DNA of 63,969 bases, counting the filler, from Dirinaria sp. TL-2023a (lineage: Eukaryota), in NCBI GenBank assembly GCA_051941275.1. It is 3 parts of 3 records of this genome, joined end to end, with 100 filler letters (N's around TTAATTAATTAA, not from the genome) between each part and the next. Parts side by side here need not be neighbours in the genome. Positions count along the whole stretch, not along the records: positions 21,688 to 43,257 come from JAVEBF010000252.1; 2 more parts are not named here. The stretch is one strand, 5' to 3'. The position numbers were made by a program, and so were the translations under genes. The notes under the pieces were generated by a model that searched no databases, was not told the origin of the DNA, and saw nothing but the letters and a program-made list of their open reading frames with translations. Below are positions 16,157 to 43,357 of the stretch, one piece after another (positions within the stretch are counted from its first letter, which is position 1; every line of letters starts with the position of its first letter).

Positions 16157-16673
16157 GACAAGGCAAGCTCAAAGGACGATTGTTTGTCTGAGAAGTCTTA
16201 ATGTTGAGGTGGTGATAATCCCAAATGGATTGCCTGACATATATACTTTTTCCATCGCCAATTTCGCCTAAAAATTTCCCGCAGAAATTGAAAACCATCA
16301 GTGGAAAAGAAGACGTCCTTTGTATGATGTCTGTCGGTCAAGTGCAGTCAAGAGATCTTGTGCTCAGCCTCTTCGATGGTGTCGGAGTCTAGTGCGACAT
16401 TTCGGAGCTTAAAACATTCCGAATGGTGGTAGCGCATTCAGCCGCGCTGGCCTTGAATTTCGGGTTTCCACTCGAGAATGACGACGTATCAGCATATTTT
16501 AAATGTCATCGTTTCAGTTCTGAGCCGAATCTCTAGTAGTCGCAAGCTCTTGAACCGTTCCAAGCTTGGACAATAGCTCACAACAACCATGACTCCCGAA
16601 TACGGCTAATGCTGAATGGAGCAATCTAGCGCTGCTCTCGAAGATCTGCAGTAAATGATATGTCTTCCCAGCT

Positions 16674-21587: not shown

Positions 21588-21687
21588 NNNNNNNNNNNNN
21601 NNNNNNNNNNNNNNNNNNNNNNNNNNNNNNNTTAATTAATTAANNNNNNNNNNNNNNNNNNNNNNNNNNNNNNNNNNNNNNNNNNNN
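21588..21687. other. Assembly gap with artificial six-frame stop linker (N44-TTAATTAATTAA-N44)
   Basis: TTAATTAATTAA at 21632-21643 sits inside Ns, and the flanks are homopolymer-noisy, as expected of low-quality contig ends. Confidence 0.97.
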
Positions 21688-23236
21688 GGTGCGGTGAGAG
21701 GAATAGGAGTTAGATTGAGAGATAAGATACTGATCTTTTTGTTCTTTTTGTCGACAGTCATATATATACATACAGAAGTATCTTTTTTTGATTCAATGAA
21801 GTAAAAGGAAGGAAATGAGATACGGTTTTAATAATTTACTCTTTCACATTTCCTCTCCCTACTTAGGTACATTCTTTACACTTTCGTACTCTCGACTGAC
21901 TGCGTATGTGTCTATAGATCTTACGTAAATATAAACGTGATTTAATAATTGATGGCAGCTAGGCTTTTTCTTTATCCCACAGAATAGGTGTATAATCTCT
22001 CCTATCAGTATTCCTTCCACATGCTCTGGAAAAAGATGAAAAGAAAAAGAAAAGAAGGGGCACTTGGGAAAAAATTTTTTTTTTTTTTTTTTTTTGAAAT
22101 AGGGGTTCTCGCTCTTTTTCCTGGTGCTGCAGATGGCATCTAGAGTCGAGTAGAGAGGTAAAGCCTTTATTGCGTAAGGAAGAAAAAAAAAGAAAAAATA
22201 GAAAAGACGCCCACCCTACTCTGCTTGCTACACTATTCTTCTTCTGATTTAGATCTAATGAACACAGGATTCGATGCCCGAGGTCTAAATCAAGAAAAAG
22301 ATACACGTTCACCACCAACCAACGCATCCAATTTTCCCCCTAAGAATTTTCAGCCTGAGGATATTATCAATCTAAAACCCTCAATTCAAACGCAGGCCAA
22401 GGCAGAAACCTCTGAGGTCGTAGCCTAGCCTGTACAGTATCTGTCTCTTGTTCTCGTGATTTCTTCACCAGCGGGGATTCAGCGAGGTATGATTCGTCAA
22501 TGGGCTCAGAGGGAGACTTCAACCTCATAATAGATCCGATCATATAGTGTTGGCGGATATAGATGTCGATGTAGATGGAGATGGAGAAGTGGTGGGATGT
22601 ATGAGAAAGCGAGAAGAAGACACGCATGGGTAAACAACGTAGACCTGGTTTATTCGAGCACCTACCTACATTAGACATATATTCTGCTGGAATAGATCTT
22701 GTGAGGAGGGCGGTGGGCGCATAGTAGGTGTCACAAAAAAAGGCTAGTATGCCTTTTAGAGGATTTGCCGGTTTCTGTGCCAAAAATATCTACAGTACGG
22801 CTGTGATGGCGCGATTTGGAGGGTATTCAAAAGCAACTGTTATCACTCATACTTGTGGAACCCTCTTTTCTTCCGCGTGCAACGCCTGGTGTCCAAAGAA
22901 CGATCTTCGAATCGTTGAATTTAATAAACTTGCAAAAATAGTCGTTACGTAAGCCTGTATATTTTGATTAACATAGTCTAGCGCGGCTAAGGCCTTTCTT
23001 CAAGCGAGACTTGGCGTGATTGGCTAATATGAGCGCCAAGCAAGGCGCACACTCCGGGGGTTCGGCACGGCACGGCAGATCCGAAAAGACAATTCTGGAT
23101 ACTGTATTATCGATGTCGTATGCGAGTACCTCCGTGGTGTCTGCCACATACAATTGTATGGAATTACTGCCATGAAAATTCTTATATTCACATATATGTC
23201 GTTGTGGGGGGTGGGGCGCAGAATACATTACTACTC

Positions 23237-23237
<1 letters not shown>

Positions 23238-23272
<35 letters not shown>
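23238..23272 (+). repeat. (TGC)11 microsatellite
   Basis: Eleven TGC units read directly; they produce the spurious poly-Leu in ORF 23120-23479. Confidence 0.9.
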
Positions 23273-25631
23273 ATGGCTGAAAAAAAACCTCTTATTATCT
23301 TTTCTGGGGGAAAGAAAGCACTTGGCCAATGTCAGTTATATCAAAAGCTGACCAAGGCAGCCGCAAAATCTGTTCGGGAGTACTGTGTAGAGATAAAGAT
23401 CGATAGTCGACGATTGATGACGATGAGCTTGACAGACTCGGTCGTCGCGCTGTCCCGTCTTACAACGCAAAGCTGTTAAGATTTCTTTAGATAGCCGCTT
23501 CCTACCGAATAGCAGGATCAGACGGGATTTCTAATAAGAAGTGCGAGAATGTCGATCATGACTGACTGTTAAAAGGCTGCACGATCCAGCGGAGGGTCGA
23601 GCCTTTGAAGAATTGTAGATGTGGTCTGGCCCGAGGAAATGCCTTAAGAGCCTCCGGAGCTCGGACTTAGGAACACGTGATTAGCTCGGCAGGCCTACGT
23701 CTTGGCAGGCTAGTAAGAGCGTCTAGTAGAAGTCGCTCAATGACCAGCAAGTGAGCAGGGAGAGATCAGGAGATCTCGTTGTGGATATTCATTTCGAACG
23801 CGGCGCTTCTTTGAGCCTCATCTTCAACTCGGCTCATTCAAATATACTTGCCTTCAGATGATAAATAAAATTCAAGAGATCACCTGTCGTTCACTTGGCA
23901 TACTCATAGCCTTCCAACAGGACCCAACCACCTCGTCCTCATCTTACCTATCCCTCCTGAAAAAAGTAAAGAGGCGTAACAAGAATCTCAACTTATTCAT
24001 GTTGGTTGTCTTTGCATTGTTAGCTCGCATACCATTACGAGTCCTATTTCGGGCACATTAGTACCCGAGGTTGTTGACCTTGGACCGAAATTCTCCGTAG
24101 CCTTTTGGAAGCGATTGCCCAACTCCAGCGATCATGCAAGCTTACCGCCTCGCTAAGAGAGCCTTTGAATCAACTCCACATCAAGAGTCCAAACCTTAAT
24201 TGGATTATATCCCACGGCGTCTTTCATATTCCCGTTATCAGCAAGCCGAAAAACGGCCGCAAGCTACAATTCCGCCACCGGCATGAAAATCGTGCGCTTG
24301 CCGAAACGGCTTTAAGTGCAAAAACGAGACCAGAGAGCGTGGGAGCAAGGGACTCCAATCAATGAATATGATGCATCAGTATGACGAACGCCTGTTTACA
24401 TTGGCAGACGTCAGCCGTTGGTATGCTTTCCTGCATGCATGCAAGCCAGCCGCACCAGGATTACTCGGCCGGCTCAGTCTCTTGCAGCCGGAAAAGCCTT
24501 GTTGCAGTTAACATTACGAGATCAAGCGCTAGCTAATGTCGATCTTGGTGATGCGGCAACGCAGCAATGTCCTGCTCGAACTTCTCATGCCATTGGAGAG
24601 ATGCACACTCCGCCAGCACCAATGCTGGAGATACGCGGCCGAGATAGCATATGGCAATGCTGATGTACCTATGTGGTGATCGGGTTGTTTGTTATTATAC
24701 ACTAAGGTGCAGGCTTAGTATGTATACAACCCAATCGAGGCTCGGATCGTAAACCATGTGGCTGGAAGACAAGACGTGGCAAAATTAGCCCAAAAAGTCC
24801 AAAAAGCCCAAAGAGAGCGCACTGCTATGGATGGATATCGGTGCCTGCGAAGGAGAACTAGAGGGCAGTAGATTACCGAGATCCGAAGATTGGACAGGGC
24901 CTCCCCTTCTTGATTCCAAAGTGTTGCCGCTGCGGAGTATTTGATCGTTCTCACTAGTCAAGGCTTGTCCCAAAACCCGGCGCTTTGTTTCTGAGATCAT
25001 GTGCACTTGTTGCGGCACTCGATTGCCACCAAATCCGCACAAGGGGATTTAACTATGCCTGTCAAAGCATACAGCTTCGTGGAGATAAACAACCACGGAA
25101 TGCAATCGGAGAATAGTATTCAATAGCGTTCTCAACGGGTTCTGTGTTGAGACTCTACTCCCGCCACGCAGGACTTCGCTCCTCCCGCCACGGGCGATGG
25201 CTCACCCACTGCTGTTGTGTAATCGTGCCTCAACAGATCCAGCAACTCTCTAGCCCTTCCTCTCCACATTAAAGCAGTAGATGGAAACGAAGCCTGATGA
25301 AAGCTCACGCAAAGTGTGTATCCAGAGACTGCCTAGCGAAGCATTCTCGCCCTTCGAAGATCCCTGCTTCCTTGCCGAAAAAGAGGAGGGACAGAGAGAG
25401 AAACGATGAACGATATACACTCTTTTGATGAGTGCTTCTTTTATCTTGCGCACCTGCAAAACTACAACGTTCTATACGTACGGACAGCCAGATTTGGCTG
25501 CAATCAAGCACGATTGCAAATACCTATCTTTTGGTAGCGCTTTACAACGCACATGTACTTGATCGAAGTGTGGGGAGGAGAACTGGCTTCTATTACCTGC
25601 GTGTGCTTCGCCAGAAACAATATGAAATCTT

Positions 25632-27327
25632 CTAGGCATCGGAATCGCGGTTTTCTTTGCGCGGCTTGTCACCTGTGTAAAACATCTACCGGCAACAGTC
25701 CGTTAGTATACCCGTGATTTAATATCTCATACTGGGGCAAACTCACAACCGGTAGACTGCCTGAAAAGCAAAACGCGGCGAGGACCCCGTACGTAATGGC
25801 CCAGGTGGTTTTTTCGTAGAGCAAGCCACTGATCAAAGGACCGATGACGGTTCCGGCCCCGAACGTGACATCGACCAAAGCGTAAGCTTCTGTGAACGCG
25901 CCGCTGTTCTCCGAGAGTTCGGGATTGTCCGCCTCCAGTCGTTCGACCGCAAAGGACATGTCCGAGACCAAGGATGTCAGGAACAAGTTGATCCCCATCC
26001 CTGCGATCCAAAAATGAAAATAAAGCGTCAGCAAAGATTGCCGTATCCCCAAATTGCCGTTGACAATGGTTCAAAGATGGAAAAAGGAAGTAATAATTAC
26101 CGATGAGAACCAAAAAAACGCACAGAAGGACCTTCCTGACTAAATCGGCATTTTTGACGATGCCTAGTAATGCTAGATTGGGTACAGCGAGTGTAAAGCC
26201 GAGCAGAGCGACCAGACGCCGTCCATAGCGGTCACTAAGAATGCCAAAGAGTGGGGTCATAAGCGACGGCACTGTTAACGTGAGGAATATCAACCCGGCG
26301 CCGCTCGTGTCCCAGTGGAACGTGCGTTGGACGAAGCGTGGTAAGACTGCGTCGAAGGAGGTGTGAAGTGTAGAATGGACGAAGGTGCTGTACAAAGCCG
26401 CCATTATCTGTGGAGACGCAAGTAAAGCTCTAGTTGTGGGGAACCATCTCTTAGCAGGAACCTTAGCCTTGCTAAAGCCATTTCCTAGTAGCGGCGAGAC
26501 TTCATCATGTTGCGTATTGTGGTGTGCTGTAGTTCTACCGTTTCTACTTTCTTCGACGTTGGGTGCGGTCGGATTTCCATTACCGTGCTTCGAGCCATTG
26601 CCTGCTTTTTGACTGTCCGACGACCATTGCCGTGCTCTTCTTTTATCGATAAGTAGCACTGCGGCGATAAGATCGATGGCGATGATGGCCAGGCAAATAG
26701 AAAAAACGGCGTAGTAACCCGCTTTCTGATATATAACGCCCGCTAGGACAGGCGCTACAAGTACACCGAGGTTGACTCCAGACAGGGCAAACCCGATCCA
26801 AGATCCAACTTCATCTCTTTCTACTGATTCAACCAGGAGCGCCAAAACTGTTGTGTAGACCACTCCGGCCGATATACCTTGTAAGCAACGTGCTATGACG
26901 AGGATATACGTAGCTTTCGCGAGCATGAACAACAAAGTGGCAGCCAGAGCGGCCATAAGCCCGACAACAAGAGGCACTTGGCGGAGCGGTGAATGTTGGG
27001 TAACCCACCCAGCAACTGGAGCACCTAGGACCATAAAGCAGCCGAACACAACAAAAAGTATGGTTATCCACGACTGCACCATGCTCGAAGGGACACCCGA
27101 CCTTTCAACGAGAGTGAAGGGAAGCAGAGGAACGATCTCACGATAGTCAGCTAAGGAGAACTCGACGACAAAGGAGGTTCTAGCTCTTCGACACTGACTA
27201 CGCTGTACAGGACGCCATCTGTGAAGGTAGCTATGAAGCTGGCCATTCCGATGAACCATTTGGATGACCGTAATCCCAAGAGTATTGGAGGTCGGCCAGA
27301 GCCATCTTGCGAACTTTTTCCTAGCAT
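25632..27327 (-). CDS. MFS transporter (vesicular-amine-transporter-like fungal subfamily), 4 exons
   Basis: PPILLGLRSSKWFI...ATFTDGVLYSV|IVPLLPFTLVERSG, IARCLQGISAGVV, FDAVLPRFVQRTFHW, GILSDRYGRR and GAFTEAYAL...GTVIGPLISG. Introns at ~27138-27198, ~26002-26100 and ~25688-25747. Ends in ...KENRDSDA-TAG at 25632. Confidence 0.9.
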
Positions 27328-27359
27328 AACGTCTATATGAGACACGATGAGACGATGAG

Positions 27360-27712
27360 ACGATGAGAAGAAAACCAAAGGTCAAGTCAAAAGACTGCGT
27401 CTGTACACTTGGTAGTGTAGAGTTGATCGAGTGTGGTGAAGGTAGAATGGGTGACCAGCGAACTTGACTACCGTTCGATCAAACGTTATCAGAGCATCGG
27501 TGAAGATGCTTCGGCAGTCCGACTGGATCCGATGATGATGATGATAATAAAAACCGAAGGTCAAGTCAAGATTTTGTGTTCCTACCCTCGGTGGCGTAGA
27601 GTCGATGGAGCGTGAGGAAGGTAGATTGGGTGGCCAGTGGCCGGCATTGCCGTTCAGGCAAATCTTGTCAGATTATCGGTCAGGTTGTTCCAGCAGCCCG
27701 ACTGGCTCCGAT
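27360..27712. repeat. Diverged ~179-bp tandem duplication upstream of the MFS gene
   Basis: AAAACC(A/G)AAGGTCAAGTCAA occurs at 27371 and 27550, and GACTGG(A/C)TCCGAT at 27521 and 27700. The offset stays at 179 bp with similarity throughout. Confidence 0.8.
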
Positions 27713-30336
27713 ACGTCCGGACTGATAGAAGATCACGCGGAAGTTGCATCATTACTGTCGTCTTCAAGGCGGGACCGGTTCGCATGCTGCAGTGTGGATC
27801 CCACACGCACAGTACTAAGGTGATGATGATAGGCTTCTGGCTTTGCAACTTCGAGAAGTCCAACAGCAGCACGATATGAGCACCCCTCGAATCACGTTGA
27901 TCGATTTACGCTTTACGCACACCTATTGCATCAACGAGCTTCTCCGCCAGGATCGAGTGCCGATGTGTCTGTGCCCGTCTACTCGTCACGACGTTCATTG
28001 ATCAATGAACGTCACTCTGTGGGTAAACGGTTTGGTTGATGATGGGATGTGGAATTGCCAACGAGGGATTTGTACCTGAAGTACCGTGCAGGTGATGACA
28101 ATATTTTGAGTTACGATGAGAAGGTACAATAATCTACATGGACTCGTCCCTACGATATGATGGTGTGAGCAGGTACATGGTCGAGGTACCTCAAGGCGGT
28201 CTATTTCCATGCCAAGAGTGTGAATTGTGAAGCCACTAAAGCTAATTAAGAGACGTTAATCCACATCGGGAAGATCTAGATCGGGGAAATGCGAGGACTA
28301 GTTCGTGAACGAGAGTAAGGTACTTACATAAGGTACTTAAGGTACCTTAAGGGAAGGGAATGGACTCGTACCTCCGTAGTAGCGAGTAGCGACCTAACAC
28401 TTCGGCAACTTTGCCTATATAGGTTTAGAGATTAGTTGCTTGTTTGCCGAGTGCGAATGACAATGGAAGGCACATCCCATCTGCATTATTAACATGCTAA
28501 CCCTACAAAATTTCGGACCCATCTGCTGTTCCATCATACATACAGGTAGACATCAACCTTCGTCATGGAACAGTCGACGTCCTGTGAGGTGGTTCTGTTC
28601 TGACCAGTCTTTGAGGTACGGGAGTGCCAATGCGACGGTATCACTGCAGGAGAAGCAACATGAACGTCAGCTCAACCGCGGGTTACCGGGTTCGTGGGAG
28701 GACATCGATGCCAAGCTACCGTGCGGGGGTTCGATGTTCTCCTATTACAAAGAAATCACGCCACCCGGAGCTGGTGACGGTATCCGGACCCCTCAGTAAA
28801 GTAAGGTATGGCTTTTATGGCAAATTGCCCCTCTGCCCACAGTTGGTCTACAAGCGTCCTGGGCAGTGGGTAAGGTAGTGGGCAATGAACACTTACTCCT
28901 TCAAGCAGTTCGAGAATTCAGAACGAGACGCCAAGAACGGCTTGGCAGCTGAATGAAGAGCTCCAAGCCCATATAGACAAAAGATGATCAGCAACAAAGG
29001 TGACTGATGGCTAATCAAGAACTAGCAAAATCACCGAGTACCGAAAAATCCATCGTGCTTGGGCGGTAAAGCTACTGAAGCATGGCCTAAAGTGGTCTCG
29101 GTCCGCGATTTAATGCAAAGCTAAAGGGTTCAGGCTGCATGCAGATCTGTAATGTAAGTATGGTGAGGCATGAGCTCATTAGGAACGGAGGAGTCGATCA
29201 TTGGAGCACGAAAAGCAAGTGTTAGGTATTTGCCCCATTCCCTTCCTCTCAACTTTCTCCGGAAAGTGTCTCGTTGTCGGTGTTGCAGCACCCAGTACTG
29301 TACTGATCCTTCTACGTATTTCACACTCTCGTCGAAATTTCTGCTAAAAGGTTTAGAGCGCTCTATGTATGGGCCCCTTCGCATGATGTCTTGCAGCAGC
29401 AAGTGTTTTCATCAATGTTGCCTGTACCTCAGCACCCATTGCTTTTTTAACTCCTGCTCTTAGGATTACTAGATGTAAGTAAGATAACTTCTTCTGAGTG
29501 TTCCCGCTGCTTCTCCCAGATTGGGATCTTTAGCTCCTTCTCATTTCGGATCTCCTCACTTTTGAGCAGCTATCGTTTTCTTCCGGCGTAACTAGCCTCA
29601 TTGTGTCCTGTCATCGGGCTCCGTCCTCTGCTTGCGTAGTGTCCAAGCCTCGGGCGCAGTGGGTTGTTTGTGCATGGCCGGTACGATTATAGCAGGATGA
29701 AAGTTTGCGCTAGACCGAGCTTACGCAGTATTTTCGCCGTCTCGACCCCTTTTCAAGTCAGAGTCCGTCTCTAACGCAGCAGATTAGTACGTAAGTATCT
29801 TATAAAACCTTATACGTTCCACAAGTTTCAGATTTTGACTGGAGCTCAACATAGGCGGACTCAGATCTACGCGATCGACAAGTTATCTCAAACAATGTAG
29901 ATTTGAACGTAGTCATAGATAATTTCGTGAATTTCTCATCCAAATTCGAGTAGTTTCAACCTTTGAAATGCCTTGTTGCATGTTCAGCACAATCAAACAC
30001 AGCAATTGGGTTTTTGAATAAACGAAAGAAACTATTTTACTCAGTTTGTATTATTCGTGAGAGTTGGGAAATCTTGTTGAGTGCAAAGACTATTGTACCG
30101 CCTAGGGGATTGATGGGTTTTGGTGGGGAATATAAGGACGTAGACTTCTGGGTTAGTACTGCAGAAGTAAGGAGCGTCTCTGGTACAGCTTTTTGGGCTC
30201 ACCAGTACCTTAGTAGTACATGAATATAGATAAGCAATCCTGTAGTGCCACGCAAGCCGGCATACCGAGAAAGGAGAGACTTGTCTGCAATCTTGATCAC
30301 CAGGGCATTAATATGAAGGGAGTGTGCAGTTTCTCT

Positions 30337-33300
30337 TTAGAAGTCACCGTTCTGGACTTCGTATCCCTGTTCATCTGGACGGCCCGGCGCGACAGTTGGC
30401 CGCCGCTGATGATGATCCTGATGGGCCGGGAATGCTGTAGTATAGAACTCGCTCCATCCGCCCATGCGTACGCGCACCAGGCCGTATTTCTCTGGGTCTT
30501 TGCTTGCCGCCTGCAAGGTTTGCAGGTCCGCGCAAGTCAAAGTGATGAGGTTACCTCCAACCCAGCCTGCGGCGTAGTCTTTGATGAACTGTTGCAGGTC
30601 TTCCAGCGGGAAGTCCTCAGGGAGATTCAAGTCGACTGGCGCCGCATCTGCGATGCCATACTCCACGGCATCCTGGTGATAACTCTTCATTACGCCGTAT
30701 ATGTTGCGGAAAGCTGGCTTTGGCGGCAGGTCTTGTGGTGAAGGGGCTGGAGATGTATCGGAAGCAACAGGCATGCCTTTGCGACGGCCGTCGGCCGAAG
30801 CCCCACACGCCTCTCCAACGCCCGTATAACCCTCGAACGTACCAGCGCCAATGGTCACCACGAACTCGAAATCTTGTCCGTATTTCTGCCTGATCCTTTC
30901 AAGCTTGGGGGCAAGCGCTGGATGGGGTTCGCGGATGACACTCTTACCAATCTCCACGATGCTGTCCATGAAATCAGCACCGATCTTCTGGAGCACGGCA
31001 TCAGCGGCACCACTAGCCCACTTGGGTAATGCCAATGCCGCCGTGCGAAGCTCTTTGTAGCGATCCGCGTGCTGCTCAGCTTCTGTTGCTGCCAACATAA
31101 GATCCTGGTAAGGCTCGATCATGCCAAATCCCCAATCATTGATCAAGCATAGAAGCAACTCGTCCAAGGTCGTGCATGCTGTCTTATCGTCATAAACTAG
31201 CTTCCAAATGGCGTAAAGCGAGTCTATAGTGTTCGAGGCGCCAGGGAACAGCGGCGCGATCATGTGGAAGCGCGCACCTCCATCAGTAAGATCACGCCCT
31301 TTCTCGATGCAGCCGTCTATCACTGTCGAGAGCAGCGGACTCGGACAGACGTCTGCCAGATTTCCATAGTGGTCCAGAATGTAACCGTAGCATTGAATCG
31401 TGAGCCATCTGAGTTGCTCTAGGAAGATTTTTTGTAACTCCTCGAACGATTTGATTGATCGCGCTAATGGCGAGCGGAACGAGGCCTTGAGACCTCTGAG
31501 ATGCTCCGACCCGGCAGCAGCGTACGTAGCTCCTTCATTGATGGTCTGCTCCAGGGCAAGGAGAGGCATGACATTGTTAAAAGCAAATTCCGTAGCCCCT
31601 GCCATCATGGGCTCGAAACAGCCATCGGCCGCATAGTCGCGAGACCGTCTAATTCCAACGTGATCGCTGGTGACTCCCGAGTCAAGAAGGCCTTTGCATA
31701 GCTTGTCATCGTTGAACAAACATGGCTGTGCACCACCCGAGAGCAGAGCCTTTGCTGCTTCCTCGATAATGCCAACGGGCGTTTGCTTGTTAAGGCGAAG
31801 CGATACGCTGGGTGCGCTGACCGGAATGCGCCTTGCTGATTTAAGGAAGAGCATGGTGACGGGGTTGCACCCATCCTGGGGCTCACCATCCATCGCCTTG
31901 TACCCTCCGATCGTGATCTGTTGGCCCCACTGATTGATGCCGCCACCTTGTGAAAAGTTTCCCCAGCCGCCGTTGATTGAGCCCGTGCCGCAGGTAATGT
32001 AATCGTGTATGAAAGAACGATCAATGAAGGCGTTCTCGCCAATCTTGACAAACAGACAATCAATGATTTCCTGTGCCCGATCTGTCGGAATTGGGTATTT
32101 TTCCAGGAATGGCCAAAGAATTTGATCGAGACGGCCAATCGACGTCAACTCTCCTACCAGGTGCAAGCAGCAGTGAAACGAATAGAGCAGCTGGACGGCA
32201 TCCTGAAAGCTCTGCGGAGCCTGATCAGCGAGGCGTCTCAGTCGATCAGATACATCAGCCATACTGTCAGCGTCATCTGCCTGGTTTTGCGTGCGAGCTT
32301 GAGCAGCGGAGTTGTCGGCAGCTGTTGCCCAATTACGCAAATAGCCTTGAACCCCTTTAAGAGACGTGATTGCGGATTTGTAGAAGGTAGCATGTGATGG
32401 GTCCTCGTGAAGCCGCTTCTCCAAGTCTGCAAGCATGTTCCCCAAGCCGTTGCGGACGAGATGGTCAAGATCAGGAATTATGTGGCCCATAGACGAAAAC
32501 TCATTGAGCTGCTTTGCCAACCAGAAGTTGAACACTTCTTCGTTACTCAGGTAAGGCATGACTTCTTTCCCTCGGCCGTATGTAAAGTCTGGAACCACGC
32601 CGACGATGAGCTCCTTGGGATGGATTCTCAAGAGTCCACATTTTTGGGCAACCTTTGAGTCGGGTGCGGACAGCAAGTTATTGAGGGTCTCAAAGTTAGC
32701 CATGGCTTTGCGTGTCGGTATAGGGATTGCTTCCATTTCCTTCTTCTTATCGTCGCTGCCAGCAAGATGGGGAAGGCGAGGAAAGTGGTCATTGTGAACC
32801 CATCCGTCACGCCAGTGGTTGAACGTCCTGTGTATCAAACTCAAGAGGCGTGGGGTTGGTCCATCGCCTTCTTTGTAACGTCCTTCGCCCATTGTGTGCA
32901 TGTAGTCCTGAAAATTGTAGAAGAGGTATCCGTTCGGGCTGCTCACTTTCCAATGCGGATGCTCGTACAAGTCGTCGCTGGCCTTCGCCGGCGAGACTCC
33001 GAGCTCCCTGGCTGCCGGCACATACCAGTACGATCCACCCACACCGGACATCATTTGCATCAACTTGTCTGCCGGATCGTCCTTTCTCTTGCCAAGAAGA
33101 TTCTGGAGAATGTCCTCAAAGCGTTGTTGTTCATTGCAAAGTGCGACAAACATGATTCCCTGTTCACGTCCTGAATGATTATGGACTCTGCCAAACGGCA
33201 ATGCTTGGCGAAGGATTTTGCGCTGATCACCATTGCTGTCACGAACGTTGGCACGATGTACGTGCCCACGTGTAGAGTGTTGAGAGAGGATAGACCCATC

Positions 33301-33897
33301 GGTTCTGCGGCCGACGATCTGGTCCTGGCTGTCGACGGTGTTCGACTTTATGGCTCCCCAGTCGAAAAGAAATCGCTGGGTGAAGGCAAAGGAAGAACCT
33401 TTGAAGTCTCCATTGATGAGGATGTCCTCTTGAAGGCTGACCGGATCGTTCGGATTGGTAATGCCGTCGTGGTATCGCCCTCCTATAATCCTCGAGTCCA
33501 GACGCTTGCCCATGACAACACAATCAATGTTTTTGGCCAGACCTTCCAAGCGCATCTTCGGTTCTTTGAGGAGCTCTTCAGCCGTGTTCTGGTCATGCGT
33601 CTTCAGGTAGAGGAGTACATCTCCACTCGTGTTCGTATACTGGTCGGTCCCATTCAGTACCTTCTCAGATATGGGAATGGTACGGTCATTCCACTTCCCC
33701 CATAGTTGCGGACTGAAACCAGCGAACAGTCCACATCGGGGCTGCTGCGAGTCAGCTGTGGCAGCAAGATCCCGAACAATGGTGATGAGACTATTGTACG
33801 TGCCCTCGTGATGATCTTTGAGGTCAATAGTCAAGAGTTGCCCGAAGAGAGAACGCGTCAACAAGCCGCGCTGGGCACCTTCTAGGATTTCGGTCAT
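30337..33897 (-). CDS. DyP-type heme peroxidase / glycyl radical enzyme fusion protein, intronless, 1186 aa
   Basis: Residues ~1-295 are DyP: GDVLLYLK, RYHDGITNP (Asp144), GSSFAFTQRF..DW, QDQIVGR, GHVHRAN (His212), KILRQALPFG (Arg230), GIMFVAL, GSYWYVP. Residues ~420-1170 are GRE: PKELIVG, GHIIPD, PQSFQDAVQ, SIGRLDQILWPF, QITIGG, PSVSLR, PCLFNDD, DGCFEP (Cys760/Glu762), SPLLSTVIDGCIEKGRD..DGGARF, GASNTIDSL.AI.KLVYD, GASADGR..G.P, LVRVRMGGWSEFY (Gly1147). Confidence 0.93.
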   Translation of the reverse strand: MTEILEGAQRGLLTRSLFGQLLTIDLKDHHEGTYNSLITIVRDLAATADSQQPRCGLFAGFSPQLWGKWNDRTIPISEKVLNGTDQYTNTSGDVLLYLKTHDQNTAEELLKEPKMRLEGLAKNIDCVVMGKRLDSRIIGGRYHDGITNPNDPVSLQEDILINGDFKGSSFAFTQRFLFDWGAIKSNTVDSQDQIVGRRTDGSILSQHSTRGHVHRANVRDSNGDQRKILRQALPFGRVHNHSGREQGIMFVALCNEQQRFEDILQNLLGKRKDDPADKLMQMMSGVGGSYWYVPAARELGVSPAKASDDLYEHPHWKVSSPNGYLFYNFQDYMHTMGEGRYKEGDGPTPRLLSLIHRTFNHWRDGWVHNDHFPRLPHLAGSDDKKKEMEAIPIPTRKAMANFETLNNLLSAPDSKVAQKCGLLRIHPKELIVGVVPDFTYGRGKEVMPYLSNEEVFNFWLAKQLNEFSSMGHIIPDLDHLVRNGLGNMLADLEKRLHEDPSHATFYKSAITSLKGVQGYLRNWATAADNSAAQARTQNQADDADSMADVSDRLRRLADQAPQSFQDAVQLLYSFHCCLHLVGELTSIGRLDQILWPFLEKYPIPTDRAQEIIDCLFVKIGENAFIDRSFIHDYITCGTGSINGGWGNFSQGGGINQWGQQITIGGYKAMDGEPQDGCNPVTMLFLKSARRIPVSAPSVSLRLNKQTPVGIIEEAAKALLSGGAQPCLFNDDKLCKGLLDSGVTSDHVGIRRSRDYAADGCFEPMMAGATEFAFNNVMPLLALEQTINEGATYAAAGSEHLRGLKASFRSPLARSIKSFEELQKIFLEQLRWLTIQCYGYILDHYGNLADVCPSPLLSTVIDGCIEKGRDLTDGGARFHMIAPLFPGASNTIDSLYAIWKLVYDDKTACTTLDELLLCLINDWGFGMIEPYQDLMLAATEAEQHADRYKELRTAALALPKWASGAADAVLQKIGADFMDSIVEIGKSVIREPHPALAPKLERIRQKYGQDFEFVVTIGAGTFEGYTGVGEACGASADGRRKGMPVASDTSPAPSPQDLPPKPAFRNIYGVMKSYHQDAVEYGIADAAPVDLNLPEDFPLEDLQQFIKDYAAGWVGGNLITLTCADLQTLQAASKDPEKYGLVRVRMGGWSEFYTTAFPAHQDHHQRRPTVAPGRPDEQGYEVQNGDF

Positions 33898-34560
33898 CTT
33901 CGCTTGATTGATGTAAAAAGTTTGATCTGATGAGTGAAGACAGCCTTGATACGTTCATGCAAAGACTGTTCTCTCCCTCCATCGCGAGCAAAGGCAGGGT
34001 AGTATAAAAAGTAGCAGGTGTATGACACAACAGCTAGCCGGCGATAACGAGTCGCATATCAAAACCTTCCCCGCAACTGCACAGCTCGTTTCTCGGATGC
34101 ATTCGGGGTGAAGATATTCAGACTCGAGTGCGCATAATGAGAGAACCACTCAACGGCAGTATGGAAGAGCGGGGAATGACCCATCGCAACATCAATGAGC
34201 TTTCTCGTCCGAATGCAGCGTGACGCAGTCAGTTGAAGCGCACATGCAGGCTTGAAGATTGAGCACACCTCGAATGGGGAAAGGCAGCCGATCATTATGG
34301 GCGGCAAGAGCCTGATATGCATAGAATGGTTTTGGATAAACGAGATGAGAGAAAAAAGGCCAAAGACAGGGCCAGATTCAATGACCGTGCCATTTAAACT
34401 TTTTGAACAACTACAGGCTGTGAAACTACACCTATTGATCAAGTTGTCATGATGCTAACAACGCTCAGATTATACTGCGGGTCCAGTGACTCGGCTCAAC
34501 TTCTTCCCCAGATGGTGAACAACAGGACGTCGCCTGCGGATCTAACTTTGGGCAGCCGAC

Positions 34561-36560
34561 CTACAAGCTACGTCGACTCACACGTATCGGTAAGCCATTT
34601 TTAGGCCTCAGAGTAAAGCTTGGAAGGAATTCCATTTTGAAGCCCGGCTCAAGGCTAAGATCATATCGTCGGATAACCGTAGCAATCGCGATCGTCATTT
34701 CGAGCATTGCGAGCCCTTGCCCTAGAATCAAGAGGTGTTAGATTGCAGCTTCGCGATGTCTGATATGGTAACAAACCGATGCAATTTCTTGGGCCCCATG
34801 AGAAAGGGAAATAAGATCCCTTGGTCTTCGTATGGCCAGAGCCGCCAGACCGCCACCGTTCCGGATCAAAGTCATCGGCATCTTCCCATAGAGTGGGATC
34901 TCGATGCACTATAATCTCGTGAGATTCCTCAATTCATGACATTGAAATGAACGTGCAGGAATGGGATAGGCTCACCGGCAGGATTCCATAAAGCTAAGGT
35001 AGTATCTGCAGGGAGCGTCGTGCCGCACACTGTTGTATTGACCGCGCAGGTTCGGAAGCTTCCGAATCCTGTCGAGTGCACTCTCAGAGTCTCTTTGACG
35101 ACCATGTTCAAATACGGAAGCTTGGTCTGATCGATAGAAGCAATGGAATCATTGTCAGGTATACTTGCATCGATCTCTGCACGCAATCGAGCCAGGATTT
35201 CTGGGTTGCGGAGCTGCATCCCGTAGAGCTTGAGTCAGCTCTCACGATTCCATCTCCCTCAGCTAGTATGAGGCGGTCTTACCACTTCCCAAAGTAGGAA
35301 TGACATGGTGTGTGCAGTCGGGTCTGCTCCGGCCACCAGGAATGCCACTATTGATCCACACATTTGGCTCAGCAAACGATCACCAGTGAGGTCCAGCCTT
35401 CCTTTTCAATCGAACGTACCGTAATTGTCCACAAGCTCTTTCGAACTAAAGGAATAGCTTCCGTTGGACTCCTTCTGCCTGTCACAAGTCATAAGCGTCT
35501 TGGTACTCAGTGATTGCGGCGCCCTTACTTAGCCAGGATCTCAAATATTTTTTTGGGAATTTTGTTGGGTTTCTCCTGGGATGCATCGGCCCCATGGCGG
35601 ACATTCTCTACCGCTTTCTCTGCCATAAGTCTCAACTCTGCGACAGCACGATGCATCTCTCTCGTCTTTCTCAGAATGGGGAACTTTGCTCTCCAAGGAA
35701 AAAGCCCGCATTTCATGAGTTCTGGCAACACTATGTCGAAGAGCTGCATTATGCGACAGTCCGAGCCATGAGCAAGTGCGTGAAAGTCGACACCATATGC
35801 AATATCCCCAATGAAGTCAAGCGTAAGAAGGACGTGAAGTGAGGAGAAGTCAACAACGGTCTTATCTCTTGCAGCAATGTCAAGATATTCCACACAGTGC
35901 TGTGGATCATGGACAAACATCAGCAGCGATGCGATTGTGTTTAAACCCTTGCTGCTACTTACGTTTAGATGTTTTGCAAAGCAAGCGTACTGACCCTCGA
36001 TGATATTAGGTTGAAAAGCTGGTGCAAGACGCTTTCTTTGTATCCGCCATTTATCGTGATTTGTCTGTACGAACAAGGCGTCGCCACTCAGAGGCCGGAA
36101 CCCATCGTATTGAGTTGCGGCCTTCTGCCAATTCGAGTTTGAGATGGTGGTAATCATATCTGGATCGCCAATATAGATGACTCGTGAGAAAGGGCCGTTC
36201 CACTTTCATAGTTTAAGCCAATGCTGATCGTAGTTTGTGTGGAGATACTGACGGTCTGGAAGACGTGTCCGTATTCACGATTCCATTGCAACCACTACAA
36301 GCTGTTAGGCTGATTTTGACACAGGGAATATCTTGACTGACCTTTTCATGCACATTATCAGCCATCGTCTGGTCGAGGTTGCCGGTCCAGAAATTTTTCA
36401 CCGGCGGACCAGGGAATTCATAGCGAGCCCGAATATAGACGTACATGAAGCGGACAACCATAATCATTAACAATGCAATAATTGTCATGGCAAGGAATGA
36501 GACCTGGACGACGTTGAGACCACCCAGGGTCAGGGGCAAAGGAGAAGCTAGTTTCGTCAT
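34561..36560 (-). CDS. Cytochrome P450, 9 exons, atypical I-helix (AGADPT)
   Basis: N-terminal TM anchor with FPGPP, KWRIQRKRLAPAF, I-helix YVAFLVAGADPTAHTMSF (exon ~35283-35348), KETLR (ExxR), HRDP..W.DADDFDPERW, heme motif FPFSWGPRNCIG|QGLA, and stop TAG at 34561. Eight GT-AG introns were traced in frame. Confidence 0.93.
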
Positions 36561-38508
36561 CTTTGGTTTGTCGTACGCGTAGTGAGAGGAGAGAGTCCTT
36601 GAATTCCTCTGTATTTCACCCGCTTCGTCGTAGTTATGAGGATGAAAGGCCCATAAGGATCTAAATGAGTTGTGGCAGAAGCCCCGCTTTCACTGCGAGC
36701 TACATCTGGATGCAAAGCAGACAACGCTCCGGAGGTTGACGCCATGAGCTCTGGCTAGCGCCGTGTCCGAATCGTCTGAGTGACTACAGGTGCGCTTTGA
36801 CTAGGCAGGTCTTGTCTCCTCCGTCCAGGCCGATATCGGATACAGAATATCAGCCAACTTGTGTGCAGAGGATGAGCCATGCCTGCATAGGACGGCGTCG
36901 GAGAAAACTCTGATGGAGGCTCATAGCAGTCCTGTCGTGCAGATCTATCGTCAACTGAGAATCACAGGCGTACGTGCAAAAGTGTAAAAAAAGGGGGGGA
37001 ATGATCCCTGTATCTGCTTCAGGTAACAATGGTACATACTCGGCAGGCACAATACAAATGGGAGCAGGTCGTGGTCTCTGCTAAAGCACAGCTGCACTGT
37101 CCCCACATATGTGCTTGCGACTTGCGACATTTATGTGGGATGCAGCGTGGCTTGGCTTGTCTGGTTAATAATTCTAGATGATGTCCCGCGTACTCCGCAA
37201 GCTACAGTTACAGTACTGTAACGTAGACGTGCTAGCGGCAATGATCGACCTTCATACAGTAGGTATTCTTCAGACCTACCTCCAGTAAGCTAATGCAAGC
37301 TTAGCGCCTTGGTCGGCTCTGATGCAAGCCAGCATGTCTGTTCTTGAACGCTGGGCTCCTTTGGATGCGGGGTGCAGGCCACGAAGGTTGTCTTCACACC
37401 ATCACGATTCTGTAAGCGAGATACCGTGAAGAGCAGGCGCGTTGGAGGAGCGGTCGCTCTGCAAAACTTGTCACTCGGCACTTGAGTAGTGCTCAGGGAA
37501 TAAAAGAGTGTAGTGATGAGGAGATCCTTGATACATCGGCTATACCTGTGATGTGTGGGTACCGCAGTAAACAAGTAGGTACAGTACGTGCCAGGAGGGC
37601 CAAGCCACTAGACCTACTCGTACATGTAACCACTCTCCCACTGAAATAAGGTAAGGGGAAATAGATCATAAGCCAAATCGTCGTCCATACTCGGTGGTAG
37701 GCTCGAGACTCTAGACCTCGATGCTTCTGTAAATATCTTGGCACGGAAGATAGTTTTCGGCGTCCCCGGTTTGTGCCCCAGGCTGTTCCTGCAGCATTCC
37801 CTAGCTTCAATACCGGACAGACGTGACTGGCTTCCTCGCTTTCGTTTCCCCGAAACATTAGTGCAGCGGGTGGAAAATCCTGTTAGCGTCGAACTAAAAC
37901 GAATGGGCTTAGCTTGCAGCTCCGCCTCAACATCATCTCACATTTGATCGAATTGCGACATTTTGAATTACATAACAGAGGTGTTTTACTGACGACGAGA
38001 AAATTACAGAATTCATAAATCTGCATCAATTATACCTCTTCTGCAAATATTTTCGAAACGTGATCCTGAGAGTACGAGAATTGGAGCCATGTCGACTGAC
38101 CCTCGAAAGCGCGAGCGACCGAGATTTGCTATACAGATCTCTTTGTATATCTTGCTTAAGCTCTGCACAGCCAGGCTTTTCTTTGCTATCATTAATTTCA
38201 CTCATACGTGCTGATAGTCTGACAGATACTGATCAGGTAACACCATTAAAATTCCCTTTTTTCTCATCGATGGTGGACCTTCCCAAGGACGGAAAACTGT
38301 TAATTACACTGTGAGGACCTTGAACAAGGTTGGAAACAAAACACGTCAGAGGCTTGATTACCCATCCTCCCACATATTTCCATGATCGTAACATACATGA
38401 CCGTCAAGAAATACAACTCAAAGCTCTACTACTCGTCCCTGTTCGGCTGGCATGTGCATACAGAATGCAGATTTTCCACCTGGTATGGCACCGTACCGGC
38501 TTGATGCT

Positions 38509-38970
38509 ATGACCATAGTTCTTCGACTCCTATTCGCCATAGCCAGCTTGATCGCAATTTCGAATGCTGGCTCTCTCTATCATGCGGGATCAAGTATGTC
38601 AGTTCTACAGTGCCCATGCAGACATGATACTTTAGCGAACGAAAACGAAGTGAACAACACTCGCCTAGTCCTGACTCTAGATCAGTGTGCTGTGCGCCAC
38701 TGTGACGACAGCGAATGCATCTCGAAAGACTAAATTGCAATGACTTCAGTTTCGAAATCGGCACAGGCCTGTTTTCACAAGCTTAACCATGCTATTCAAG
38801 ATAGCGTCTTCCGGGTAGATCCAAGATCGAGGGCCAATATCAAACGCCTGGTGGACTTAGGTGGTATATGCGTCACAGGTTACAGAATAATTCGGACGCT
38901 AAATGCGCCAAGCCCCACCCTAATTGTCCGAATTGTTTTGATAACCCCGAGTATGCTCTACAACCAATGA
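38509..38970 (+). pseudogene. Possible small secreted Cys-containing protein, interrupted by an in-frame TAA
   Basis: Signal-peptide-like MTIVLRLLFAIASLIAISNA, then a GTATGT...TTTAG intron candidate. ORFs 38452-38733 and 38740-38970 share a frame and are separated by one TAA. Confidence 0.35.
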
Positions 38971-40254
38971 TTCTACATGGTAATGACCCGGGATATCTAG
39001 GTGTAAGGGACTGCTACATACACCGAAAAAGCAGCATCACATAAACCAGCAAGCCATTCATGCATGCCTCCATGACCAGGTAAGTCCATGCGAGATGCGC
39101 AATATGCATGGCAACGTGCTATACGAGGTCATAACACCATGTCATGGAGAAAGATCATGAAAGAAAAAAAAAAAAAAAAAAAAGGTGGTTCTCTTGGATG
39201 CGTCAAAACTTGATATTCCAACAGCTTTCATCGCAATTGAGGGATGCGTGTATAATCTTGACCAACGCTGTATTTAAGTGCGACGTTGCATGTGCCTTCA
39301 AGATCTTTAATCCATTGCAATGACACGGCGCTTAAAAACTCGGATTAACTAGGGTGTGCGTCAGAATGACAGGCAAAAGCTAAGGGTGCTAGGAATGCAT
39401 CACAATGACAAGCGAAAGCAAAAGATACTAGGTACTCGGCGCTAGTGCTGAATATCTACATCCTTACCCGAGCCCACCGAGAATTGAATGTAAGATACAT
39501 GTAGAGTCTACCTTAGTTCTACCCCGCTCAACCTTCAATGGCACTTGAGGCATCCTTTTCGCACACTTCATTGTTGGCAGCGGATCTCTACTACAAATAC
39601 ATTAGCTTCATTATGAAGGAGGCGTATCTAGGCGAGGCCGCTACAAATCCTATTTCTATGAGCACTATGTTTTCCAAATACACATTGTTGCACGATGGAA
39701 GATTTGTGATGTCGATTCATCTACAGTGTATTGGAGTAAAAGCAGTTTGGTAGCAAGCTGAGCCGTCGAAATAATCCCTTACTCCACGTTTTCATCGATG
39801 CGGGCTCTCTGATCCGCACTAAGTGTCTGCACCCCTCGACCTAGTGCATCGGATATGACCGGGTCACAGTTGCGAGCCGTATGTGACGACAGCTTCACGG
39901 GCCAATCACTAGTACAGTAAATTGTAGACTGTACCTACAATTGCAATGCTTGGGACGAAAGGGAAGCGACGCTGCACTATTCTTCTAAGTGAGGAGACCG
40001 AAGAAAATGAAAGTTATCGCGAGGTGTCGAATGTGGAAGGAGAAGGGAGCCTGGGGGAACGCACGCTAGCAGAGTTTGATGGCTGGAGCAGTACATCGGA
40101 CTCCATGATTAAAGCCGTTCACGTCTGGATGGTTTTCGAGTAACTGGCTTGAGACTCCAGAACACAACCAGTCACCTTTCGTCTCCGCAACACAGTCCCA
40201 CCAAACTCTGGGACGGAAGACCGCTGGTGGGCGTAGAGTTGGAGTGCTGCAATC

Positions 40255-41184
40255 ATGGAGCCTACCAAGTCAAAGCGGCCGGTCCTTTTCTTTGACATTG
40301 ACAACTGTGTACGTGAAAACACGACTCCTGCCGTTTTGCAGAAAACCACTGACCCCTAGTGCAGCTCTACCCCAAAAGTCTGTGCCCAGAAACCATTACG
40401 ATTGCTGCACTTGCTGACATCGTTGGCACAGGCAATAATATAAATGAGATGATGGTAGAGTTGATCAACGATTATTTCGCCAGACACCTCGAACTGTCTG
40501 CCGAAGATGCGAAGATGTTGCATCAGAAATATTACAAGGATTACGGACTTGCCATCACCGGCCTTGCTCTGCATCACAAGATAGCTCCACTAGAGTTCAA
40601 TAGAGAAGTCGACGATGCCCTGCCTCTCGATGACATTATCAGCTTCAATCCTCAATTGAGACAACTTCTCGCAGACATTGACAAAGCCAAGGTCAAAATG
40701 TGGCTATTTACCAATGCATACATCACGCACGCGCAGAGGGTAGTCCGACTGCTTGGTATTGAAGACATGTTCGAGGGTATTACATACTGCGATTACAGCA
40801 GGGTCCCGATTCGATCGAAGCCCCACACGGAAATGTACGAGAAGGCCGAGTTCGAGGCCGGCGCGTCTTCCGTTGACGGTTGCTTCTTTGTTGGTAAGCG
40901 ACTCAAGTATTTTTCAAGACACACAGCGGTGCTGCTACATTTGAACTTTGATTAGGCTGACAAACCTGGGACTAGATGATTCGTACCTGAACTGTCACCA
41001 TGCGCAGGAGCGAGGTTGGACGGCTGCTCATATCATAGAGCAGACAGAAACGGAACCGGAGGTCAAAGCTTCCAAGTACCAAATAAGAGACTTGGAAGAG
41101 CTCCGGGGGATTTTCCCACAATTCTTCAAGGATCGCAGTACCGGCAGTGCTGTGGCTGGTTCCGCTAGGTCGTCTCAGCTGTGA
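40255..41184 (+). CDS. SDT1: HAD-family pyrimidine 5'-nucleotidase (Sdt1/Phm8-like), 4 exons
   Basis: RPVLFFDIDNC|LYPK, HQKYYKDYGLA, EFNREVDDALPLD, WLFTNAYITHA, FEGITYCDY, KPH.EMY, FFV|DDSYLN and GWTAAH. Confidence 0.9.
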
Positions 41185-43257
41185 TGGAGTTACACGAAGA
41201 CAATCTTCATCGTTCCGCCATCCGCAAGCTCTTCGAAATCAAATAGTAAGCGATGAATGAGTGTGCCATCTTAGCAAAAAACGAATGTACCCTACACGTT
41301 TGATGATAACATGCATGTCATAGACTCTGCACCAGCAAACAAAGCCGAGGGAGTGCTTGATAGAACGCAAATGCGTCGCCTAAGGTACGAGTACGAGTAC
41401 CGTCCTATCTGCATGCTAGCACTTAGGTAATCATTGCGCCATCCGCACGTGATCTACATTCCTTTACCCGATCCACTAATAGATTTTCTCTCTCTCCCCC
41501 CATCCTCCTACGAACCGGTAGACTGCGCTCCATTGAATCTAGGCAAGATAACATAACTCGCGTCCAGGTAATCCTCTGACACTATTTCAGCTTGGCGCGA
41601 TGAAGACGAAATCTCATTGTCGCAATCGATTACCTCAGCCAGGTCGTCATATATCATGGCATACATGATACATGCTATCTAGTTCCTAGCTACCGAAGAA
41701 CAGTATCGCGCTAGCCGCAATCAAACGATCGGAGGTTTTAATTCCCCGGTCTTTGGCGTGGGGAAAACCCTCTCTCAGCCTCCATGCGAAAACAGTGCCT
41801 GACCTTGGAAACGTGTCTACAGCAATATCTCCGCAGATAAGACGCTGCATGTGCAATGTCGACCTCGGTTCAAACCCTGGGTCGGCCGCAGATATGCAGT
41901 CTGCTACTGCAAGGCGTATATGAAACCAGGCACCAACACTACATACCTTATCTAGCATCGATTACGGAGGTCCTGAACTCAGTCTCGCCCGCTAGTGTTA
42001 TCAATCGAGAGTCGCCCGGGGCATCACCCAAGATTTATCAACCCCAGCATACAAAAAACCTACCTAAGAGGTACCTGTGCTCGCCAGAGCGTAACCGTAC
42101 CTAACCACCTAGAAGACGCAGTCTTGGCGTGAACCACGCTGGGCAGGACTTTATAGCGTGGACCTCCGTGCTAGCGCGATCAATGCCACTGATGCGACAG
42201 ATTGGGAGGCGCCGCGCGAGACTCAGGCCACCCTTGATCATCCGCCCGAACAATAAAGCCAAGTTATTGAGCTGAGTTGGACCTGAGCTGGCCAAAGCGT
42301 ACCCGCAGTTATCTAGGGTAGATAAGAACAAACACTACGCATGGCTGGCGCCATGCATGCCAAGACGAAGCTATCTAGGTGACTCCAGTTGAGCGTTGAC
42401 GAGCACAGCTACAAATTCTCAGATAGTACGGAGTATGCAATTCTCTACGACGATATTGAAATTTCAATGGCATTAGCCTAGGACCGTCATCAATATTAAT
42501 ATTATATGGAAATCGTCCCCTGACACGTCGATCGGCTCGTCAAGTGAACTGACGAGATTAAATCATACTTACTCCTCATATGATCTAAAAGTCCCGCTCT
42601 GCTCGGGTGGGAAACATGTTCGAGAGTGAAATTCTTACATGCCTTTTTGAATAGTCAGCGTGACTCAGGTGTATGGGTGCCTTTAATAAAGCAAATTGGA
42701 AAATTCGTCAAGGTGTGGAAAATAGGAAAGCCTCTGGGCAGCTTCCTTCCAGAGACTCCTTTTAGTTGGCAAGCCGATCTTTAGTAAAAGTGGCCCACCA
42801 CCTCAACTTGTAGCACAGTTGCTGACGACGAACATCTCGCTTTCCCAGATGGCGATGATGCTCTGCCAGTGGTATGACTAACATACTTAGCACTCCCAAC
42901 ATATTTTACATGTCACTGTTATGATCTCATCAATAGTGAGAGATCTGTACGAGTACATGCAACAAACACAGAGTATATCACAAGGCATCCGGCGGGAAGA
43001 CGGTGAGAATCTCTCACTCAAGTCTAGAGAAACGTCCATATGCTTTTCAACTATCATTGTGACCAATTTTGGATGGCAATATGGTGGCCTTTTTGGTTGG
43101 TGGGTTGGAGTGAAGGAAAAGAAGCAGCCGAAAGCAGATCCATAGGTCTTCCCGATTTACATCCAGGCGCCCTCAAAGGCGTTGAAAACGGTGCTTTTGA
43201 AGGCTTCTCTTCACTCTACCCATTCTCCAGGTCTCGTTCACGTGCATCGGTAGAGGC

Positions 43258-43357
43258 NNNNNNNNNNNNNNNNNNNNNNNNNNNNNNNNNNNNNNNNNNN
43301 NTTAATTAATTAANNNNNNNNNNNNNNNNNNNNNNNNNNNNNNNNNNNNNNNNNNNN
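43258..43357. other. Assembly gap with artificial six-frame stop linker (N44-TTAATTAATTAA-N44)
   Basis: Same structure as the first gap, with the linker at 43302-43313. Confidence 0.97.

Follow-up and report, generated by a model that had tools for sequence, protein, structure and literature searches.

A DyP-type peroxidase-glycyl radical enzyme gene with inherited, loose linkage to P450 and MFS transporter genes in lichen-forming fungi

Introduction

What does a DyP-type peroxidase fused to a glycyl radical enzyme (DyP-GRE) do in a lichen-forming fungus, and do the cytochrome P450 and MFS transporter genes on either side of it share in its task? The question is raised by a locus of Dirinaria sp. 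TL-2023a (Caliciales; GenBank assembly GCA_051941275.1), located in a stretch of 63,969 nucleotides (the window), in which three contigs are joined end to end. Glycyl radical enzymes (GREs) are held to be strictly anaerobic and dependent on a radical-SAM activase, commonly encoded by a neighbouring gene, and the DyP fusion family departs from that pattern in its genomes. In the available parts of two earlier reports, the fusion is classified as an unexplored DyP subclass, P2 (DyP-PFL), with protection against H2O2 as its proposed role (PMC9719856), and a DyP B-PFL fusion of Chaetomium is described as induced 18.5-fold by peroxyacetic acid, with a putative fungal activase being named (PMC5041501). 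The fusion is therefore already published, and its function is uncharacterised. No substrate is known for the DyP-GRE family, whose neighbours differ from one bacterial locus to the next. A lichen clade in which the sequence close to the catalytic Cys is remodelled and two neighbours recur offers a usable handle, and the linked genes give a first hint of what the fused enzyme, which seemingly lacks its usual activating partner, may do.

The analyses presented below confirm the DyP-GRE, MFS and P450 genes as real and intact, and show that they are transcribed in a close relative and that their linkage is inherited and loose. The reading that we favour, at slightly less than an even chance, is that the three genes form a loose accessory module, restricted to lichens, which has no enzyme for building a scaffold and serves to convert and transport one small molecule.

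Structure and transcription of the locus

The first-pass annotation had described three intact minus-strand genes in the order P450, DyP-GRE and MFS, and both the gene models and the RNA joints agree with it (Table 1). The P450 gene is separated from DyP-GRE by 663 bp, and DyP-GRE from the MFS gene by 3009 bp. All three genes are covered by RNA contigs of a close relative (4 runs from one sample of one study; mostly 90-99% alike), with contig joints at 8/8 introns of the P450 gene (all GT-AG) and at 3/3 introns of the MFS gene, while DyP-GRE lies within a single RNA contig (30054-34040). Moreover, the P450 model is an almost letter-for-letter match to a database protein of a close relative (P0122). 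The RNA contigs mean transcription in the relative, not co-regulation. The genes are found on separate transcript contigs, no RNA piece among those listed spans two of them, and two intergenic bins have no RNA depth in any of the 4 runs. RNA contigs also cover positions 28800-30050, between DyP-GRE and the MFS gene, where no Pfam gene was found; this RNA may be non-coding or belong to a long 3' end.

Table 1. Coordinates of the features of the locus (positions in the window)
Feature	Position	Strand	Basis and remarks
Real contig (C252) carrying the P450, DyP-GRE and MFS genes	21688..43257	.	artificial spacers on both sides
MFS transporter, 490 aa, 4 exons (27327-27199, 27136-26101, 26000-25747, 25685-25632)	25632..27327	-	gene model, RNA
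DyP-type peroxidase fused to glycyl radical enzyme, 1186 aa, one exon	30337..33897	-	ATG 33897, stop 30337; Pfam Dyp_perox_C and PFL-like
Gly loop RVRMGGWSE; Gly1147 aligned to the radical Gly of glycerol dehydratase (RVAGYS)	30448..30474	-	alignment
Cys loop DGCFE (Cys760, Glu762); Cys-x-Glu pattern of eliminase-type GREs	31612..31626	-	alignment
DyP domain (residues ~1-315); positions of distal acid Asp144, heme ligand His212 and distal Arg230	32953..33897	-	PMC9719856 (available part) and motif position
Cytochrome P450, 508 aa, 9 exons	34561..36560	-	gene model, RNA joints, matches to solved relatives
P450 exons	36560-36342, 36294-36253, 36202-35963, 35899-35529, 35478-35420, 35347-35283, 35213-34976, 34908-34777, 34721-34561	-	
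P450 exon 6; I-helix AGADPTAH, Pro at the usual catalytic Thr position	35283..35347	-	alignment to CYP46A1 AGHETSA
HAD-family hydrolase; sole other gene detected on the contig, outside the proposed module	40255..41184	+	Pfam match

Linkage of the three genes in lichen-forming fungi

Fungal synteny was judged from locus tags and contig sizes, paired by hand, and the lichen counts are partial, referring to the family members listed (30 clusters, at most 15 members each). Automated scans for fungal loci contributed little: the first scan of genome contigs returned none and the metagenome scan only 2 weak, unrelated loci. The P450 and MFS genes are adjacent in 5/6 Teloschistaceae assemblies, the sixth being fragmentary: Calogaya (Q9226_000464/465), Flavoplaca oasis (LQ337_003634/3633), F. 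limonia (Q9205_001796/1797), F. navasiana (Q9192_005677/5676) and F. citrina, in which P450 and then MFS are merged into one gene model.

DyP-GRE joins them in some of these fungi. One 43,166 bp contig of F. oasis carries the MFS gene (LQ337_003633), half of the P450 gene (003634) and DyP-GRE (003636), and one 41,755 bp contig of F. cf. flavocitrina carries DyP-GRE (Q9215_004860) and the MFS gene (004864). In two further record pairs (ENA, 24,478 bp; Logan, 26,221 bp), which are sister sequences counted here as one lineage, DyP-GRE and MFS are placed on contigs of equal size. Homologues elsewhere are thus linked in these two Flavoplaca species and in both record pairs, and the first-pass annotation's own worry, that they might never be, is set aside. 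In the tree of the lichen DyP-GRE clade (FastTree), linkage is seen in three sub-lineages, with representatives on either side of the main split; Dirinaria and Flavoplaca belong to different orders (Caliciales and Teloschistales, respectively). Since the chance of sharing a 42 kb contig in a genome of ~28 Mb is ~0.0015, the linkage is inherited and goes back to the common ancestor of the lichen DyP-GREs. Gene order is DyP-GRE, P450, MFS in Flavoplaca versus P450, DyP-GRE, MFS in Dirinaria. Of the gene-cluster interpretation proposed from the sequence at first, what survives is that the linkage recurs in some lichen fungi; it is patchy, the order is not kept, no adjacent pair was seen in non-lichen fungi, and neither partner was found in the bacterial loci. 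A search of the mostly open-access literature (main texts) yielded nothing on the lichen DyP-GRE clade or on its P450/MFS linkage.

The DyP-GRE protein

Residue conservation was assessed in an alignment of 126 rows (the query, 105 of the 120 homologues listed and 20 bacterial loci). All rows agree at His212, Cys760, Glu762, Gly1147 and Trp1148, 125 have Arg230, and the position of Asp144 holds D in 114 rows and E in 11. The G of the DyP motif GXXDG is R or H in DyP-GRE. The N-terminal part thus has the proximal His and the distal Arg and Asp of a DyP-type peroxidase, and heme binding and peroxidase activity are predicted for it. The C-terminal part has the GRE barrel, the Cys loop and the C-terminal Gly loop, and the arrangement of both parts in one chain, an N-terminal DyP followed by a PFL-like domain, is that of subclass P2. 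The predicted structure has a pTM of 0.92 across both domains, with low confidence for the Gly loop. PFL proper has an adjacent Cys-Cys pair in its Cys loop; this pair is absent from DyP-GRE, whose loop reads GC[FY]EP and whose best matches are dehydratases and lyases. Among solved proteins, the GRE domain is nearest not to PFL but to glycerol dehydratase (1r8w), propanediol dehydratase and CutC.

The lichen proteins (18 rows) carry the substitutions Y636C, T639G, P649S, V658G and Y761F (the last one beside Cys760), absent or rare in the 108 others. Judging from their place near the Cys loop, these positions probably line the substrate pocket, and the changes near Cys760 would fit a lichen enzyme that has taken a new substrate. 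The closest relatives of the query are found in Psora and Teloschistaceae (80-89% identity), and it is 54-62% identical to members from Sordariomycetes and betaproteobacteria. Lichen DyP-GREs form one long-stemmed clade (FastTree; 26 rows, support 100), sister to Neoarthrinium and inside Sordariomycete sequences. Fungal DyP-GREs constitute one clade, sister to betaproteobacteria (IQ-TREE, 23 rows), which agrees with the transfer proposed in the available part of PMC5041501; a FastTree topology with bacteria nested within fungi was dropped, as IQ-TREE on the 23 rows did not reproduce it. Two variants of the architecture were also observed: (i) a longer subfamily with Glu for the distal Asp (motif RFSENL; loci L037, L040, L051, L053, L055, L057, L058 and L061), and (ii) relatives with the extra domains DUF2278, C2 and C-type lectin (P0350, P0351 and P0343).

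Search for an activase

Bacterial DyP-GRE loci (53 loci, 1.01 Mb) were taken from an alignment scan that kept the best 80 of 165 matches, a choice that favours fusions. The DyP part is present in 50 of the loci, and the other three begin at a contig edge; the GGW Gly loop also occurs in more distantly related GREs that are not fused. No activase-type CxxxCxxC frame was detected in the 53 loci (up to 10 kb of DyP-GRE), and the three CxxxCxxC hits that they contain are, we assume, MiaB/MtaB-like. The hosts are presumably largely aerobic, to judge from the named genera.

The search was extended to the genomes of 44 of the 53 hosts, two of them unpublished (G017 and G018) and many incomplete; 9 short-contig loci were excluded. 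A PFL activase over the cut-off was found in 4/44 genomes, in three of them beside the genome's own PFL, with some weak match in 19. TIGR02494 passed its cut-off in one genome and NrdG in none (four genomes scored 77-119 bits, i.e., >75 bits), and a clear PflX-like match was obtained in one genome with one query. No PFL activase over the cut-off, NrdG-like match >75 bits or PflX-like match was found in 35/44 genomes, and DyP-GRE is the sole PFL-like match in 41/44. A dedicated activase was not found next to DyP-GRE, which leaves room for activases of unknown types and for genes lying in the missing parts of incomplete genomes.

The Dirinaria genome likewise contains no activase over the cut-off. 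Four radical-SAM matches were obtained: a MoaA-like and a Tyw1-like protein (names that we assume from their sequences), a viperin-like and a PflX-like protein. The match to TIGR02494 was rejected as an activase, the protein being viperin-like instead; its gene (L007, 1102-2337, contig C1249) scores 375 bits with TIGR04278 (cut-off 450). Trp1148 was also considered as a fusion-specific relay and rejected, because unfused GREs carry the same Trp. A complex prediction for the DyP domain, the Gly-radical domain and heme, run without an alignment, scored 0.00 and is not counted as evidence in either direction. Literature listings on the activation of fused heme/GRE proteins show nothing on this locus. 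We propose self-activation by the DyP heme as the best account of the absent activase, a suggestion to be held with reserve, as its probability is clearly below one half.

The P450 and the MFS transporter

The P450 has an N-terminal membrane helix, the ExxR motif (ETLR) and the heme Cys motif (FSWGPRNCIG), and lacks the canonical acid-alcohol pair (D/E-T) of the I-helix. The I-helix motif AG[AG]DPTAH occurs in 27/35 rows of its family (7 rows have no pattern match and one is different), and the replacement of Thr by Pro is, on this alignment, a trait of the whole family. According to the available part of PMC9112060, loss of this Thr shifts P450s from normal proton delivery to iron-peroxide routes; the natural Pro of the lichen enzyme would be expected to result in atypical oxidation. 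Members of the family were found in lichens, Xylariales, Venturia and some wood-rot basidiomycetes, and no record found gives a function. An ESM Atlas search returned generic P450 clusters only, and literature listings on the I-helix motif, or on lichen clusters with DyP-GRE, show nothing on this locus. The closest non-lichen relatives are proteins of Xylariales (62-66%), and this kinship, together with the place of DyP-GRE in its tree, hints at acquisition from that group. A P450 paralogue with the same exon pattern and the motif AGGDPTAH is located elsewhere in the genome (L072, ~5960-7870, contig C487); it is pseudogenised, with several in-exon stops, mostly at Trp codons, and is closest to a Venturia protein (P0144).

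The MFS protein of the locus is 100% identical to a database record of Dirinaria sp. For a lichen MFS orthologue, all 16 matches among solved proteins (E<=1e-6) are VAChT or VMAT (SLC18), which suggests an amine cargo.

Contig limits and other genes

Identical N/stop spacers at 21588-21687 and 43258-43357 divide the window into its three contigs. As these spacers are artificial, the visible true neighbourhood of the locus is restricted to 21688-43257, with four genes, and genes outside it were rejected as neighbours. A Pfam match over the cut-off was obtained for 1/82 intergenic open frames of the contig (at least 60 aa), a HAD hydrolase that starts 3.7 kb upstream of the P450 gene and that we take to be a Sdt1-like nucleotidase, probably housekeeping. 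The contig ends 3.9 kb beyond the MFS gene and 6.7 kb beyond the P450 gene. No gene for a polyketide synthase (PKS), non-ribosomal peptide synthetase (NRPS) or terpene backbone enzyme was found within its 21.6 kb (four genes, Pfam scan of frames); the earlier claim that such enzymes are lacking is correct for this contig and does not extend past its ends, where the window continues with joined contigs.

Other genes were noted in the window and in the bacterial loci. The previous contig, not contiguous with the locus, carries on the minus strand (14429-21220) a metallo-beta-lactamase-fold gene, a Zn2Cys6 factor and a second MFS gene, and the window also contains a frame with an HNH_2 domain (7609-8277) and a 433 aa frame without a Pfam match (10223-11524). 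Recurring neighbours of bacterial DyP-GRE genes include phosphoesterases (8 loci), an unknown protein (4 loci) and others (3 loci each). A phosphoesterase gene (PF04185) lies beside DyP-GRE or one gene away in Bacteroidota and other marine-type hosts (L033, L034, L036, L039, L041, L042 and L047), with a DNase II gene also present in L041, L042 and L047. A co-oriented gene of ~420 aa without a Pfam or NCBIfam match directly follows DyP-GRE in L011, L013, L016 and L023 (~13500-14900; hosts Andreprevotia, Chitinilyticum and Pseudomonas) and is a possible partner.

Proposed function and alternative explanations

In the module that we favour, (i) the membrane-anchored P450, with Pro for Thr, would carry out an atypical oxidation of the substrate-assisted, peroxide-shunt or radical type; (ii) the cytosolic GRE domain would use Cys760 and Glu762 for the radical 1,2-elimination of a vicinal diol or amino-alcohol; and (iii) the SLC18-like antiporter would move an amine-type substrate or product. 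The most speculative step is that the enzyme's own DyP heme, with peroxide, installs the radical in place of a radical-SAM activase, the hole migrating along Trp/Tyr residues to the Gly or Cys site. The module, possibly peroxide-driven, is more likely to serve catabolism, detoxification or tailoring than to build a new scaffold. The scheme in its entirety, i.e., a peroxide-powered lichen pathway in which the DyP heme makes the GRE radical without an activase and, with a Thr-less P450 and an SLC18-like carrier, acts on a lichen-specific molecule, is unlikely to be right in every part. If true, it would bring radical elimination chemistry into an aerobic eukaryote, in a cluster type missed by backbone-based predictors.

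Several observations weigh against the favoured module. Among 14 lichen assemblies with DyP-GRE and MFS, the two genes share a contig in 2, are too fragmented to judge in 5, and are placed on different contigs (at least 19 kb) in 7 (F. citrina, F. limonia, Calogaya, Xanthomendoza sp. 2, Gallowayella cf. fulva, G. weberi and Xanthoria sp. 2). The linkage may reflect selection or only the background rate of gene-order change between lichen orders; intra-chromosomal inversions alone retain gene content while shuffling order (PMC3516569, available part). Outside lichens, ~23 of ~26 P450/DyP-GRE pairs, matched by organism name, are on different contigs, so the two genes can exist separately; the other three are on a common scaffold (Xylaria castorea, separated by 476 accessions or roughly 480 genes; Xylariales sp. 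No.14919, with tags 031250 and 031940, roughly 70 genes away from each other; Astrocystis), and no adjacent pair was seen among the ~26. No relative of the P450 or MFS gene was found in the 53 bacterial loci at E<=1e-3. The promoters of the three genes share 14 words of 7 letters, compared with a shuffle mean of 19.6, and none of 8 or 9 letters. As regards radical formation, the PflX-like gene (L008, 1018-1995, contig C20) is the only candidate activase in the Dirinaria genome, its protein scoring far under every activase cut-off, and the occurrence of the GGW loop in unfused GREs means that heme activation cannot be read from a Trp beside the radical Gly.

Alternatively, the P450 and the transporter alone may form a functional pair that oxidises and exports or sequesters a compound, with DyP-GRE as a neighbour by descent or joint acquisition that acts on its own, e.g., in peroxide stress. 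In favour of this, the pair is adjacent in 5/6 assemblies, among them three (Calogaya, F. citrina and F. limonia) with DyP-GRE on a different contig; the variable neighbours of DyP-GRE in bacteria and its separation from the P450 gene in Xylariales also speak for it. DyP-GRE is nevertheless only a few genes away from MFS in three sub-lineages, rearrangement notwithstanding, and lies between the two genes in Dirinaria; several of the different-contig cases come from draft metagenome assemblies, where the contig may have been broken, and the unlinked F. citrina differs hardly at all from the linked F. cf. flavocitrina. We consider such a pair the main competitor of the favoured module, although a somewhat improbable one.

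That there is no shared pathway, and that three unrelated accessory genes have remained together in a gene-poor stretch with slow local rearrangement, seems rather improbable. The four genes in 21.6 kb, the separate transcript contigs and the lack of a common promoter word are what this would predict, and the pseudogenised P450 paralogue indicates that such genes come and go; it does not sit well with P450-MFS adjacency across two orders, with three genes that are intact and transcribed, or with the lichen-specific changes near the Cys loop of the GRE domain. Least probable of all, in our view, is that the three genes provide tailoring and export for an ordinary biosynthetic cluster, at whose edge they lie and whose backbone gene is beyond the contig ends. 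The short distances to these ends and the non-contiguous flanking DNA of the window would allow it, but a housekeeping-type HAD gene stands on one side and ~3.9 kb without a Pfam-detectable gene on the other.

Comparison with known systems

The lichen DyP-GRE shares its architecture with subclass P2, whose fungal members, in the available parts of PMC9719856 and PMC5041501, are restricted to Leotiomycetes and Sordariomycetes; these parts do not mention the lichen clade, the linked P450 and MFS genes or the lack of an activase, and they label the domain PFL, whereas the GRE domain analysed here is closer to eliminases. With the eliminase-type GREs (glycerol and propanediol dehydratases, and the choline TMA-lyase CutC) it has in common the fold and the Cys-x-Glu and Gly loops, and it differs from them in its ~20% identity, far under every NCBIfam cut-off, its N-terminal DyP domain and the absence of an adjoining radical-SAM activase. 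The best solved relatives of the P450 are CYP46A1, CYP4B1 and CYP3A4, with which it shares the membrane anchor, ExxR and heme Cys; its identity to CYP46A1 and CYP4-clan-like P450s is ~25%, and its I-helix has D-P instead of E/D-T. The lichen MFS protein aligns with SLC18 in the TM11 motif containing Asp, and the similarity is weak (E ~1e-13, mainly in the N-terminal half).

Backbone-free catabolic or tailoring clusters of fungi typically combine one or more oxidases with a transporter, co-located and shuffled between lineages, as observed here. The Dirinaria locus differs from these clusters in being built round a radical enzyme, in having no regulator on its contig and in the patchy linkage of the third gene. 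For the proposed activation, the nearest analogy is class I ribonucleotide reductase, in which a radical for the same fold is supplied by a metal centre and a chain of Tyr residues.

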